A stretch of 64,000 nucleotides of DNA from Eledone cirrhosa (taxonomy: Eukaryota), in the NCBI GenBank assembly GCA_964016885.1, contig OZ024741.1, positions 376,836,001 through 376,900,000 on the forward strand, given 5' to 3'. The notes under the pieces were generated by a model. That model was not told where the DNA came from. It did not search any database and worked only from the letters and a program-made list of their open reading frames with translations. This document shows positions 31,527 to 51,583 of the stretch, piece after piece. The first letter of the stretch is position 1. Each line of letters opens with the position of its first letter. A program made the translations under genes and the position numbers.

Positions 31527-32155
31527 TTTTACGTCTTATATATATATATATATATATAACTATGTGCGTGATCGATAATGGGTGTAGATGTAAGAGCAAT
31601 TTTGGAAAAGCAAAATAACATAAAACAATTCGAACATATATCATTAGAAAAGTATTGTCTTACTACAAATATAGAAAATTACACAATACTTCTGTTTTCA
31701 ACGGATCTAGCCTAATTACTCAAAAATTTAGAAAACACAATTCTCTTAAACGTTATACACACACACACACATACACACACACGCACACACATATATATAT
31801 ATATATATAAACAAAGCGGCGTTATAATAAGCGTCCGCTAAACTGATGCGTGCATATATGTATGTGTACCTGTATGTATATATGTGTATATATATATATA
31901 TATATATATATATATATGCATGCTACTGTACGTCTGTATACATATATGTATGTATGTATACATACATACTTACATTTAAGTAAGTGCCATACTAAGAGTG
32001 AGAAATGAAATTTCGTTTTCATTTTTTTCAACTTATCGTTTTCGGTATGCCTGACCGATTTAACTCACTCAATATGCAAATTAGGCTGCTCAGCCGTTAA
32101 TTTTCATATGGAAAGTATATACTTTCGAACGTTCAACTATCTGGCAGATGGGTAT

Positions 32156-32198
32156 CGGGTGCTGACGATAGCTAACAAGCTTGAAACTAGTACATCGT
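32156..32198 (+). ncRNA. Type I hammerhead ribozyme (array A, copy 1)
   Basis: CGGGTG-CTGACGA-T-AGCT(AACA)AGCT-T-GAAA-CTAG-TA-CATCGT. Confidence 0.85.
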
Positions 32199-32655
32199 TC
32201 CTGTGTCAGTGTTGAACAAAAAGGTGACGTGGTTGCCTTAACACCGTATGGCATAAATTCAGGCTGTTCAGTTTGTTTACAAACGAACAAAGCGGCGTTA
32301 TAATAAGCGTCCGCTAAACTGATGCGTGCATATATGTATGTGTACCTGTATGTATATATGTGTATATATATATATATATATATATATATATATATATACA
32401 TATATATATATATATATGCATGCTGCTGTACGTCTGTATACATATATGTATGTACGTATACATACATACTTACATTTAAGTAAGTGCCATACTAAGAGTG
32501 AGAAATGAAATTTCGTTTTCATTTTTTTCAACTTATCGTTTTCGGTATGCCTGTCCGATTTAACTCAATCAATATGCAAATTAGGCTGATCAGCCGTTAA
32601 TTTTCATAAGGAAAGTATATACTTTCGAACGTTCCACTATCTGGCAGATGGGTAT

Positions 32656-32698
32656 ACGGTGCTGACGATAGCTAACAAGCTTGAAACTAGTACATCGT
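32656..32698 (+). ncRNA. Type I hammerhead ribozyme (array A, copy 2)
   Basis: ACGGTG-CTGACGA-TAGCTAACAAGCTT-GAAA-CTAG-TA-CATCGT. Confidence 0.9.
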
Positions 32699-33107
32699 TC
32701 CTGTGTCAGTGTTGAACAAAAAGGTGACGTGGTTGCCTTAACACCGTATGGCATAAATTCAGGCTGTTCAGTTTGTTTACAAACGGACAAAGCGGCGTTA
32801 TAATAAGCGTCCGCTAAACTGATTCGTGCATATATGTATGTGTACCTGTATGTATATATGTATATATATGCATGCTACTGTACGTCTGTATACATATATG
32901 TATCTACGTATACATACATACTTACATTTAAGTAAGTGCCATACTAAGAGTGAGAAATGAAATTTCGTTTTCATTTTTTTCAACTTATCGTTTTCGGTAT
33001 GCCTGACCGATTTAACTCACTCAATATGCAAATTAGGCTGCTCAGCCGTTAATTTTCATAGGGAAAGTATATACTTTCGAACGTTCAACTATCTGGCAGA
33101 TGGGTAG

Positions 33108-33150
33108 ACGGTGCTGACGATAGCTAACAAGCTTGAAACTAGTACATCGT
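33108..33150 (+). ncRNA. Type I hammerhead ribozyme (array A, copy 3)
   Basis: Identical motif to copy 2. Confidence 0.9.
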
Positions 33151-33701
33151 TCCTGTGTCAGTGTTGAACAAAAAAGTGACGTGGTTGCCTTAACACCGTA
33201 TGGCATAAATTCAGGCTGTTCAGTTTGTTTACAAACGAACAAAGCGGCGTTATAATAAGCGTCCGCTAAACTGATGCGTGCATATATGTATGTGTACCTG
33301 TATGTATATATGTGTATATATATATATATATATATATATATATATATATACATATATATATATATATATATATATATATATATATATATATATATATATA
33401 TATATATATATATATATATATATATATATATATATATATATATATATATATATATATATATATGCATGCTACTGTACGTCTGTATACATATATGTATGTA
33501 CGTATACATACATACTTACATTTAAGTAAGTGCCATACTAAGAGTGAGAAATGAAATTTCGTTTTCATTTTTTTCAACTTATCGTTTTCGGTATGCCTGA
33601 CCGATTTAACTCACTCAATATGCAAATTAGGCTGCTCAGCCGTTAATTTTCATAAGGAAAGTATATACTTTCGAACGTTCAACTATCTGGCAGATGGGTA
33701 T

Positions 33702-33744
33702 ACGGTGCTGACGATAGCTAACAAGCTTGAAACTAGTACATCGT
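33702..33744 (+). ncRNA. Type I hammerhead ribozyme (array A, copy 4)
   Basis: Identical motif to copy 2. Confidence 0.9.
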
Positions 33745-34222
33745 TCCTGTGTCAGTGTTGAACAAAAAGGTGACGTGGTTGCCTTAAATACCGTATGGCA
33801 TAAATTCAGGCTGTTCAGTTTATTTACAAACGAACAAAGCGGCGTTATAATAAGCGTCCGCTAAACTGATGCGTGCATATATGTATGTGTACCTGTATGT
33901 ATATATGTGTATATATATATATATATATATATATATATATATATATATATATATATATATATATATATATATATATATATATATGCATGCTACTGTACGT
34001 CTGTATACATATATGTATGTACGTATACATACATACTTACATTTAAGTAAGTGCCATACTAAGAGTGAGAAATGAAATTTCGTTTTCATTTTTTTCAACT
34101 TATCGTTTTCGGTATGCCTGACCGATTTAACTCACTCAATATGCAAATTAGGCTGCTCAGCCGTTAATTTTCATAAGGAAATTATATACTTTCGAACGTT
34201 CAACTACCTGGCAGATGGGTAA

Positions 34223-34265
34223 ACGGTGCTGAAGATAGCTAACAAGCTTGAAACTAGTACATCGT
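34223..34265 (+). ncRNA. Type I hammerhead ribozyme (array A, copy 5)
   Basis: Core CTGAAGA; the only change is at the freely variable position 7. Confidence 0.9.
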
Positions 34266-48583: not shown

Positions 48584-48810
48584 ATATATACACACACACA
48601 CACACACACACACACACACACACACATATACTCTTTTACTCTTTTACCTGTTTCAGCCATCCGGCTGAGGCCATGCTGGGGCACCGCATATATATATATA
48701 TGTGTGTGTGTGTGTATCATTTCGATAATATATATATATATATATATATATATTTTATATATATATATATATATATATATATATATATATATATATATAT
48801 ATATATATAT

Positions 48811-49748
48811 ATACGATATTAAACAGATGGAAACTATATTTATAAAACCATATTTATTTCATTATACATATTTCAGGGATACCATATTAAAAATATGGCA
48901 TGCCTTCGTCAGATAAAATACAATATATAAACAGGTTTATAAATAATTTTGACGTACCCTATTATAAGCGACCATTATATTAGGAAGCTGTCTGGATAGT
49001 GATTTGTTTATAATTATTTAGTTATAGTGTTAAGCACAGTTAGAAATAAGACGGAGAGAAGGAAAAAAACGGAGGCAAAGAAAAAACAGAGAGAGAAAGG
49101 GGAGAGGAAAAGAAGAAGATATATATAAATAGATAGGAGGAAGTGAAAAAGAAACAAGAAATAAATAAATGAGGCAAACGAAAGCAACAGAGAGATAATA
49201 ATTCACCATACATATAGAGAAACTCAAGAGAGAGGAAGTACTATATAGAGACAGAAGGATAATAATTATTTAGTTATAGTGTTAAGCACAGTTAGAAAAA
49301 AGACGGAGAGAAAAACGGAGAGAAAAAATGGAGAGAGAGAGGGGAGAGGAAAAGAAGGAGAGAGATAAAATATAAATAGATAGGAGGAAGTGCAAAAGAA
49401 ACAAGAAAGAAATAAGAGAGGCAAATGAAAGCAACAGAGAGATAATAATTCATCATACATATAGAGAAACTCAAGAGAGAGGAGGTATTATATACAGAGA
49501 GAAGGATACAGTTACATCTTTACGTCATGTCATATCAAGTTGAATTATCAATTCATATGAAATGGATAATAAAAATGCAAATATCAATATTCATGAATGA
49601 GACATAGATATATAATATGAGAAAATAACATTGTTCAATAATGAACATATGTTTAGTTTAAAACTCTGAAGTCAATATACCTGAAATATGTATAATGAAA
49701 TAAATATTGTTTTATAAATATAGTTTCCATTTGTTTAATATCGTATAT
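48811..49748. mobile_element. pLTR-type insertion: about 70 bp inverted ends, internal about 250 bp tandem duplication, HHR in the left arm
   Basis: 48811-48882 mirrors 49674-49748. 49010-49260 is repeated at 49262-49510. Confidence 0.78.
48855..48920 (-). ncRNA. Minimal type I hammerhead ribozyme
   Basis: TATTTTAT-CTGACGA-AGGCATGCCATATT(TTT)AATATGGTATCCCT-GAAA-TATGTA-TA-ATGAAATA. Confidence 0.85.
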
Positions 49749-50599
49749 CTACTCCAAAAACTTGTCGAGTGCTTTATATCAGTTATAAAATATTTACTTG
49801 TTGTAACCCAACAATTTTAAATAAAACTTTTGAATATATATATATATATATATATATATACACGCACATATAAATTAGGGAGAATCGTATTTCGGGTTAG
49901 GAATTAACGAAAAACAACTTCCGAGATGTGTGGCAAGCGTCGATGATTCAGAATGAATCAAAGCTACAACAAACGTTAAAGGCCAAACACACTGAGATCA
50001 TGTGTATGTTTGCATGCTGCAAGCAGTTTATACTTCCACAGGACACATACATGCATGTATCTATTTGTAGTTTTGCGTATGTGATTGTATTTATGTATAA
50101 ATCTATGTATGTGGCATCTCCGTAACATTTCGAATATATATATATATATATATGAGTGTGTGTGTGTGTGTTCCTATATGCATCTTCTTGCAGACTACTG
50201 TGTCTATACACTTGTGCCTGTGCTATATATACATATATATGTATATATACATGTATATGTATATAATATATGTGAGTGTGTATATGTATTTGTATATGTA
50301 TTTGTATATGTCTCTATGTATGTCTGTATATGTCTTATATATGAGTGTGTGTATCTGTATATATATGCGTATGCATGTGTGTATGTCCTTGTACATGTAT
50401 GTTTGTGTGTGTATATATATATATATATATATATATATTTTGGATTTAATGCTCTGAAATAGCGATATATATGTGAAGACAAACATAGAATATTCGAAAA
50501 TATTCTGTATGTTTATAATAAACATTTTGAAGACCCAATCGCTATAGAATAGAATACGTCACGTATTACAATTTGAGATTCTCGATAAAAGCAAGGGAA

Positions 50600-50642
50600 G
50601 TAACCTACGCGTTTCATTCTTATTAGAAATGATCAGGATTAC
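50600..50642 (-). ncRNA. Hammerhead (array B), G8C core mutant, probably inactive
   Basis: Core reads CTGATCA. Confidence 0.75.
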
Positions 50643-50906
50643 ATATCCAATGCTTTTATCGAGAACGACACAGCTAGAGACTTATAGAATACTTAGCTGT
50701 GTACAGGAACTGGTTTGAAAGAGCGGTAGCCGGTCCGGCAGAAATTAGAATTTGGATTTAATGCTCTGAAATAGCGATATATATGTGAAGACAAACATAG
50801 AATATTCGAAAATATTCTGTATGTTTATAATATTTGAAGACCCAATCGCTATAGAATAGAATACGTCACGTATTACAATTTGAGATTCTCGATAAAAGCA
50901 AGGGAA

Positions 50907-50949
50907 GTAACCTACGCGTTTCATTCTTATTAGAAATCATCAGGATTAC
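50907..50949 (-). ncRNA. Type I hammerhead ribozyme (array B)
   Basis: GTAATC-CTGATGA-T-TTCT(AATA)AGAA-T-GAAA-CGCG-TA-GGTTAC. Confidence 0.9.
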
Positions 50950-51271
50950 ATATCCAATGCTTTTATCGAGAACGACACAGCTAGATACTTATAGAATACT
51001 TAGCTGTGTACAGGAACTGGTTTGAAAGAGCGGTTGCCGGTCCGGCAGAAATTAGAATTTGGATTTAATGCGACAAATGTTTATTATAAACATACAGAAT
51101 ATTTTCGAATATTCTATGTTTGTCTTCACATATATATCGCTATTTCAGAGCATTAAATCCAAATTCTAATTTCTGCCGGACCGGCAACCGCTCTTTCAAA
51201 CCAGTTCCTGTACACAGCTAAGTATTCTATGAGTCTCTAGCTGTGTCGTTCTCGATAAAAGCATTGGATAT

Positions 51272-51314
51272 GTAATCCTGATGATTTCTAATAAGAATGA
51301 AACGCGTAGGTTAC
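51272..51314 (+). ncRNA. Type I hammerhead ribozyme (array B)
   Basis: Same motif; stem I is extended by TTCTCGATAAAAGCA/TGCTTTTATCGAGAA. Confidence 0.92.
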
Positions 51315-51583
51315 TTCCCTTGCTTTTATCGAGAATCTCAAATTGTAATACGTGACGTATTCTATTCTATAGCGATTGGGTCTTCAAAATGTTTATTATA
51401 AACATACAGAATATTTTCGAATATTCTATGTTTGTCTTCACATATATATCGCTATTTCAGAGCATTAAATCCAAATTCTAATTTCTGCCGGACCGGCCAC
51501 CGCTCTTTCAAACCAGTTCCTGTACACAGCTAAGTATTCTATAAGTCTCTAGCTGTGTCGTTCTCGATAAAAGCATTGGATAT

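Follow-up and report, generated by a model that had tools for sequence, protein, structure and literature searches.

The question raised by this locus is why two tandem arrays, whose repeat units share no obvious homology, carry what appears to be one hammerhead ribozyme, and how such arrays arose. The stretch analysed, called the window here, comprises 64,000 nucleotides of Eledone cirrhosa DNA (GenBank assembly GCA_964016885.1, contig OZ024741.1, positions 376,836,001 to 376,900,000, forward strand). It is part of a 3.0-Gb genome and is rich in (TA)n tracts and fragments of Penelope-like elements. The arrays represent two repeat families, A and B, and their likeness had been attributed in an initial annotation to structure-level selection defining a distinct hammerhead subclass. 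The ribozyme layout proved to be ordinary, and what matters is the structure of the insertions. Taken together, the observations are best explained if A and B are non-long-terminal-repeat (non-LTR) retrozymes with canonical hammerheads, probably inserted by a Penelope-like enzyme that would begin copying at two fixed sites within their RNA.

Families A and B

A descriptor scan for hammerheads was run across the window, and the core pattern was counted genome-wide. The generic core pattern has 37,736 matches in the genome and the reversed control pattern has none; therefore, the matches are not due to chance. Exact A cores number 24,157 and exact B cores 9,220. Another 4,359 generic matches are neither, and those that appear among the first 100 matches listed are A or B mutants. 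The scan of the window located A cores at 32162, 32662, 33114, 33708 and 34229 on the forward strand, a variant at 42789 on the reverse strand, and B cores at 51278 and 51590 (+) and at 50943 and 50636 (-).

The five forward A cores lie in one tandem array (31811..34621, +) with units of 452-594 bp, the length varying with an internal (TA)n, and the 3′ end of the array is the long terminus of the family running into (TA)n. Their hammerheads occupy 32150..32202 (four of six stem Ia pairs, predicted cleavage after 32192), 32650..32702 (intact, UAU/U internal loop, predicted cleavage after 32692), 33102..33154 (UAG/U), 33696..33748 (intact, UAU/U) and 34217..34269 (UAA/U), all on the forward strand. 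The variant, annotated initially at 42753, is a single decayed copy of subfamily A2 (42610..43023, -) with its hammerhead at 42750-42800. Family B forms two arms. The left one (50439..51071, -) holds about two 307-bp units with cores at 50943 and 50636, and its outer end is the long, tailed terminus, which runs into (TA)n at monomer position 167. The right one (51075..51736, +) holds about two 312-bp units with cores at 51278 and 51590, and its outer end, also into (TA)n, has no tail. Three extra bases (51072..51074) form the inversion junction of the two arms.

Unit lengths are 307-312 bp in B and 420-594 bp in A, with a GC content of 0.34-0.38. Each A or B unit contains one type I hammerhead and less than 50% GC, as is characteristic of non-LTR retrozymes. 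The units are also non-coding: there is no open reading frame (ORF) of 130 amino acids across B, and the frames across A are microsatellite read-throughs. The predicted circular monomers fold better than 60 shuffles (z -3.2 to -9.8), the A values being aided by the TA tract. A and B are new families of non-LTR retrozymes.

Two-armed arrays with two fixed ends

Loci fetched from elsewhere in the genome, designated by L-numbers, were used to determine how these arrays are built; they include three further families, C, D and E, described below. Across all fetched sequence, opposite-strand pairs of distinct hammerheads less than 1 kb apart were analysed, and every one of the 58 pairs points outward (15 in A, 19 in B, 11 in C, 7 in D and 6 in E). 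For family B, 23 arrays were mapped, namely that of the window, the first 13 clusters of the exact-B list and the first 9 of the list of a young subfamily. Two arms, always outward, are present in 21 of them; one array is single-armed and one abuts a gap. The arms do not stop at the cleavage site. In 18 of the 21 two-armed arrays one end lies at monomer position ~129-141 and the other at 166-172, both running into (TA)n. Long and short ends are about 30 nt apart, and none of the 21 has two long ends. The other three (the window, L098 and L106) combine a long end with a non-standard shorter one: the last copy of the window's right arm stops at monomer position ~118, short of the usual 129-141, and L106 is the exception to the (TA)n flank. 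The chance that all 18 would pair a long with a short end is about 4 in a million. The inner junction is variable, often with 1-6 shared bases. In family A, 58 of 61 mapped ends belong to two classes separated by ~60 nt, and 13 of 14 outward pairs combine an end of either class; this mapping omitted L133, where 7 kb separate two elements, and L113, an inward pair 1.8 kb apart. The same two-end pattern was seen by eye, among the loci listed, in C, D and three families with minimal hammerheads, the C locus L088 being long at both ends. A fold-back assembly artefact was rejected because the two arms differ both in their end sites and in their unique flanks.

A two-armed array with fixed ends in (TA)n is the footprint of a Penelope-like insertion. 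Tandem copies, an inverted 5′-truncated copy, a one-sided tail of 30-40 bp and a (TA)n target are described as hallmarks of Penelope-like elements, the Hydra clade included (bioRxiv 10.1101/2021.04.23.441226). In vitro, both target strands are cut and extended; the reverse transcriptase (RT) starts at two internal sites, and the stretch separating them makes up the tail, a feature called unique to these elements (PMC11167929). Five families of one genome bear the footprint tied in vitro to two such internal sites. Mobilisation of A and B by a Penelope-like enzyme is, therefore, very likely. These elements had been named as a strong candidate for moving retrozymes (PMC7229834), and a link had been drawn in vertebrates from co-occurrence and terminal-repeat homology in a study that leans to local amplification (bioRxiv 10.64898/2026.07.22.740005). 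Both sources state that the mobilising machinery and a one-step origin of arrays are open questions. Use of an inversion or tail for retrozymes was not found in the main texts of these two sources or in other literature searches, with supplements, Repbase and subscription journals outside their scope. Such elements may be familiar to annotators as non-autonomous Penelope repeats.

In the proposed course of events, A and B arrays would be transcribed as multimers, in which neighbouring hammerheads would pair through the loop III palindrome and then cut, and the monomers would be ligated into circles that are not easily cut again. A Penelope-like enzyme would nick a (TA)n tract on either strand and prime two complementary DNAs (cDNAs) on the same template; in B these would start ~130-141 and ~166-172 nt beyond the cleavage site in the downstream direction, and in A at two sites ~60 nt apart. 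Each cDNA would extend over 1 to 28 units, and the point at which they are joined would vary. We infer the enzyme, the circle and the rolling synthesis from the structure of the insertions. A circular template, copied by rolling, is somewhat favoured over other templates, and the chances that the partner enzyme belonged to the Hydra clade are about even. An element of this type in the window has the same build as the arrays: a Penelope-like element (52411..55820, +) with an RT, a C-terminal GIY-YIG-like region, the DKT and CxCx5C motifs that define the Hydra clade (bioRxiv 10.1101/2021.04.23.441226) and one in-frame stop. Its inverted terminal arm extends ~140 bp beyond the other end, both ends are in (TA)n, and the neighbours of its ORF in the ESM Atlas are of RT/GIY-YIG type. 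It is an evenly balanced proposition that every two-armed array preserves a single event, in which a Penelope-like, perhaps Hydra-clade, enzyme made two cDNAs at fixed sites, rolling many times round the retrozyme RNA circle on both target strands. If this is true, the arrays are direct genomic evidence that Penelope-like elements mobilise animal retrozymes by rolling reverse transcription, and the cDNA start sites can be read from them to the nucleotide. The exact start-site predictions concern an RNA of 310 nt, which would be easy to use in the established in vitro system, and young arrays, present in their thousands, could separate a circular from a linear template.

The uniformity of the arrays bears on this template. 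Among 184 full B monomers, 150 are identical to the commonest monomer of their own array, and the commonest monomer agrees between both arms in 8 of 10 B arrays. An explanation that needs no circle is that short Penelope-type insertions of about one unit per arm grew by local unequal crossover, a process proposed in bioRxiv 10.64898/2026.07.22.740005, or that long linear multimer transcripts were copied. Block-periodic variants inside the arrays agree with it, as do the small size of most A, C, D and E loci (1-3 hammerheads) and the TA tracts of A units, which change length after insertion. However, young B arrays that differ by only 0-7 bases on different chromosomes reach 28 units, so that local growth would require very fast expansion at most loci. 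In addition, both arms are often multi-copy and have array-private variants in common (the 308-bp unit of L109, and L145), and local crossover can produce neither the inversion nor the two fixed ends. We consider this explanation rather unlikely, although a linear multimer may have served as template. The proposal that a weak stem III leads to longer arrays was also considered and found unsupported: hammerheads per cluster average 1.9 in A (49 clusters), 2.1 in D (21) and 8.6 in B (13), values confounded by age and locus size.

Several observations weigh against insertion by a Penelope-like enzyme from a circle. Recurrent variants within arrays, with period 7 in L109, period 5 in L107 and L144 and alternating units in L129, are better explained by multimeric templates, or by local duplication after insertion, than by a pure monomer circle. 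The A array of the window has a single arm, with a divergence of a few percent among its units. The inward A pair of L113, beyond the 1-kb limit of the pair analysis, is read as two insertions. The fetched loci come mostly from the start of two contigs, C1 and C2, and within them neither A nor B showed homology to the terminal repeat or ORF of a Penelope element. None of the four families of minimal-hammerhead termini was found downstream of a Hydra-type ORF match in 213 sequences, and Pfam did not recognise the Hydra-type ORF itself. The anole element inserts without need for hammerhead cleavage (PMC11167929). Transcription, cleavage and circle formation are predictions for A and B, and Rfam returned no match at its gathering level: the HH9 model gave 20.6 bits (E 0.0038) for the B hammerhead at 51266..51318 (+, predicted cleavage after 51308) and 15.8 bits for the A hammerhead, below the cut-off of 52. 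Nonetheless, insertion by a Penelope-like enzyme remains the best reading of the two-armed arrays. An A2 array at L129:1630-3773, in which alternating units differ at ~14 sites and one junction has a weakened stem Ia, possibly records a dimer template.

The hammerhead and its relatives

The layout reported initially for both families is real. It consists of U10.1/U11.1, 14 nt from A9 to G12, a GUA site, a 3x1 internal loop, a stem Ia of six positions and a loop III that is a 4-nt palindrome in both, CUAG in A and CGCG in B. The absence of obvious homology between the units was confirmed, as their bodies could not be aligned (z -0.7 for subfamily A1 and 0.3 for A2). The core elements CUGANGA, GAAA and UH are present in nine of ten window copies, the exception being the B copy at 50636, which has C at core position 8. 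Some particulars require revision. The UAU/U loop holds in three of the five window A copies, the others having UAG and UAA, and the 42753 variant has GAU where UAU is expected. Genome-wide, 11,943 A copies have UAU vs 8,663 with UAV, a replacement in 8,663 of the 20,606 counted that is UAA in 99 of the first 100 listed. The GG/CC pairs placed directly after this loop are preceded in B by an A-U pair. The 6-bp stem Ia stands as six positions, of which the copy at 32162 pairs four and the 42753 variant five, and in the young B subfamily (508 cores genome-wide) 8 of the 9 loci that were fetched carry a 1-nt insertion in this stem. The arrays of this subfamily (L138-L146) are still long and uniform, with 4-24 hammerheads. 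The AAYA described as a tetraloop more plausibly forms the middle of a hexaloop, UAAYAA, with U.U as the first position of helix II followed by three pairs; this reading follows from the gap-free alignment to Rfam HH9 and from families D and E, in which the C and A closing the loop cannot pair.

Pairing was assessed in an alignment of ten rows, six of A and four of B. The claim that it is kept withstood this analysis, with 97.7% of cells pairing and two-sided changes in 8 of 13 pairs, although seven of these eight are solely A-versus-B contrasts; the only two-sided swap within a family separates A1 from A2 and turns G.U into U.G. The stem sequences do not differ completely, since two of the four stem II pairs are identical in A and B. 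None of 500 shuffles reached the covariation score, but 62 of 500 reached the pair count, and the rows form two related groups. Covariation between A and B is a single comparison of two lineages and is expected of any two working type I hammerheads. Within family A, selection on the hammerhead is supported: A1 and A2 are identical at 48 of 51 hammerhead positions vs 170 of 237 non-TA body positions (P ~0.01 on the ~32 positions left free by the search pattern), and the G.U to U.G swap adds to this contrast. The purifying selection proposed initially thus survives for the ribozyme within A, but not as the mark of a distinct subclass. The suggestion that the palindromic loop III permits dimeric cleavage agrees with folding predictions, in which closing stem III of a monomer costs ~5 kcal/mol and the palindrome forms a self-duplex at -4.8 (A) or -7.5 (B) kcal/mol, with no pairing predicted of A with B. 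Loop contacts of hammerheads have been described (PMC6155905), and in families A, B, D and E loop 1 begins with U and loop 2 ends with A.

Almost certainly, A and B carry the canonical animal type I hammerhead. The usual animal motif is described as having a helix I of 6 bp, a helix II of 4 bp and a helix III of 1-2 bp with a small palindromic loop, and as being active as a dimer (Cervera and De la Pena 2014, PMC4209133). In the axolotl, HHR_Amex1 has a one-pair helix III with a palindromic tetraloop and works as a dimer, and HHR_Amex2 has U.U at the base of helix II (PMC7229834). Hammerheads with U10.1-U11.1 were reported active (PMC3088659). HH9 (RF02275) aligns without gaps to A and B from stem Ia through GAAA and has the same 14 nt between A9 and G12, which it reads as four pairs and a 6-nt loop. 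With E values up to 10 and positions 30000-52000, the best 150 of 176 Rfam matches included no hammerhead, all being microsatellite-driven, and a text search of papers for the hammerhead letters found none. The canonical layout, with variants that are already published, argues that there is no new subclass; the likeness of A and B is for the most part that of the canonical design, to which a small number of known variants common to both is added.

Profile comparison of the repeats placed the families in two lineages, A with C (weakly) and B with D and E. Family C, with 1,382 exact cores, has units of ~437 bp, a stem II with A.A at its base, a UGA/U loop, a 3-bp stem III and a GUC site, and Rfam gave no hammerhead match on it. 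It carries 33-bp octamer repeats (L068-L097 and the window). In the window it forms an outward pair with one long and one short end (10260..10952, cores 10468 (-) and 10769 (+)) and a copy with the octamer repeats at 40700..41170 (-, core 40966). Family D (L075:2021-2379; L158-L182), ~320 bp and homologous to B, has G10.1-C11.1, the hexaloop CAAUAA, a 5-bp palindromic stem III, a GUC site and a rare U3-A8 core. Family E (L183-L211), ~310 bp and homologous to B and D, has U.U followed by three pairs, the hexaloop CAAMCA, a UGC/U loop, a GUU or GUC site and a compensatory C-G/U-A change in stem II; its pattern had 470 matches, part of them A mutants.

Two other explanations of the likeness have to be weighed against the canonical design. 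The initial one, a subclass in which the UAU/U loop, the AAYA tetraloop, U.U and GUA are held by special structural selection, can draw on 13 non-invariant core positions common to A and B, more than the HH9 consensus would account for, on lineage mates (C for A, D and E for B) that have a longer stem III and GUC or GUU sites, and on the finding of only 14 matches under the same pattern with a stem II starting with G or C. These 14, obtained in looking for further families with the exact A/B layout, have unrelated flanks, and some resemble minimal hammerheads. Since each element is canonical or already published, UAU is not fixed, stem Ia is bulged in the young B subfamily, in E the U.U accompanies another loop, stem III and site, and there is a single independent A-B contrast, we regard such a subclass as highly improbable. 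It is doubtful, although less so, that the hammerheads of A and B derive from one module, through a common ancestor or template switching between circles, with the bodies diverged or replaced; this would be compatible with insertion by a Penelope-like enzyme. Here 24-25 of 31 core positions are identical, including a run across the top of stem II, and the lone signal between the bodies, a faint one-way profile match of the B downstream region on A (7 of 15, median 3.7 bits), points the same way, as do interfamily chimeric junctions such as the D-type end joined to an A hammerhead in L125. Against it, many two-sided changes separate A and B in stem Ia and loop III, the flanks join A to C, and B to D and E, rather than A to B, and 31 nt with 11 invariant positions hold little phylogenetic signal. 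Beyond the canonical design, what A and B share (a 1-bp stem III, GUA, UAAYAA and often UAU) may reflect convergence or a shared module. The L125 junction (L125:2323-2382), where a D-type long end directly meets the A hammerhead, is an insertion or an interfamily template switch, and L149:1326-1424 is a short fold-back fragment between (TA)n tracts, in which stem II is B-like and stem III long.

Newt satellite 2 contains an octamer element. An octamer, ATGCAAAT, is present once per A unit, for instance at 32574..32581 (+), 119 nt upstream of the cleavage site; it lies 119 or 111 nt before that site in 68 of 94 A upstream regions and ~126 nt before it in 38 of 54 C regions, and it was found in none of 80 B or 41 D upstream regions. 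By analogy with newt satellite 2, cited as having an internal promoter of the small nuclear RNA (snRNA) type (PMC2220036), it may act as an snRNA-type promoter. The stem II of family C may also resemble that of the newt hammerhead.

Penelope-like neighbours and known systems

Remains of Penelope-like elements are found throughout the window. Broken RT/endonuclease frames lie at 378-2564 (-), 43142-45063 (+), 11849-13503 (+), 58724-59443 (-) and 36938-37396 (-), the first two of which match the Hydra-type ORF by tblastn; Pfam gave one weak RVT_1 match on eight RT/endonuclease-like frames. The four families of minimal Penelope-type hammerhead termini occur at 41960-42480, 48814-49833, 61000-61200, 14344 and 62640-62740, several forming outward pairs that combine a long end with a short one, with tails of ~30-95 nt. 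Between the arms of one terminal pair are two 247-bp purine-rich repeats (49010-49508). The window also includes frames like those of a long interspersed nuclear element with an apurinic/apyrimidinic endonuclease and an RT, RTE-like by eye (5464-8402, -), and a 2.1-kb (TA)n-type microsatellite (56057-58204). In other cephalopods, 235 Rfam hammerheads were counted in the giant squid (PMC6962438), and the words 'ribozyme' and 'retrozyme' were not found in the available text of an account of Octopus vulgaris repeats (PMC13282606).

As ribozymes, A and B share with canonical type I hammerheads and HH9 a 6-bp helix I followed by an internal loop, a helix II of four positions, a 6-nt loop, the standard core and a helix III of 1-2 bp with a palindromic loop; they differ in having U10.1-U11.1 instead of G-C, GUA instead of GUC, and a 3x1 loop instead of the 4x3 of HH9. 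Like newt satellite 2, they place a dimer-type hammerhead in a tandem repeat, although B and D lack the octamer. The axolotl Amex1 and Amex2 retrozymes also form two families, of 330-350 bp and tens of thousands of copies (PMC7229834), but A and B, compared with them by description only, join traits of both in one motif; the main text of that paper mentions no inversion or tail. As repeats, A and B resemble the non-LTR retrozymes of mussel, coral and Xenopus (PMC7229834; bioRxiv 10.64898/2026.07.22.740005) in their low-GC tandem units of 300-450 bp with one type I hammerhead each, their predicted self-paired circle and their co-occurrence with Penelope-like elements. The link to these elements rests there on co-occurrence and terminal-repeat homology, whereas here it comes from insertion structure. 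As insertions, they have the tandem copies, the inverted 5′-truncated arm and the tail at one end of the anole Poseidon element PAc (PMC11167929) and of the Hydra and Naiad clades (bioRxiv 10.1101/2021.04.23.441226), as well as the AT-rich or (TA)n target and internal 3′ ends downstream of the hammerhead. Unlike those elements, A and B encode no protein, carry full loop-loop instead of minimal hammerheads, and can have many units in both arms.

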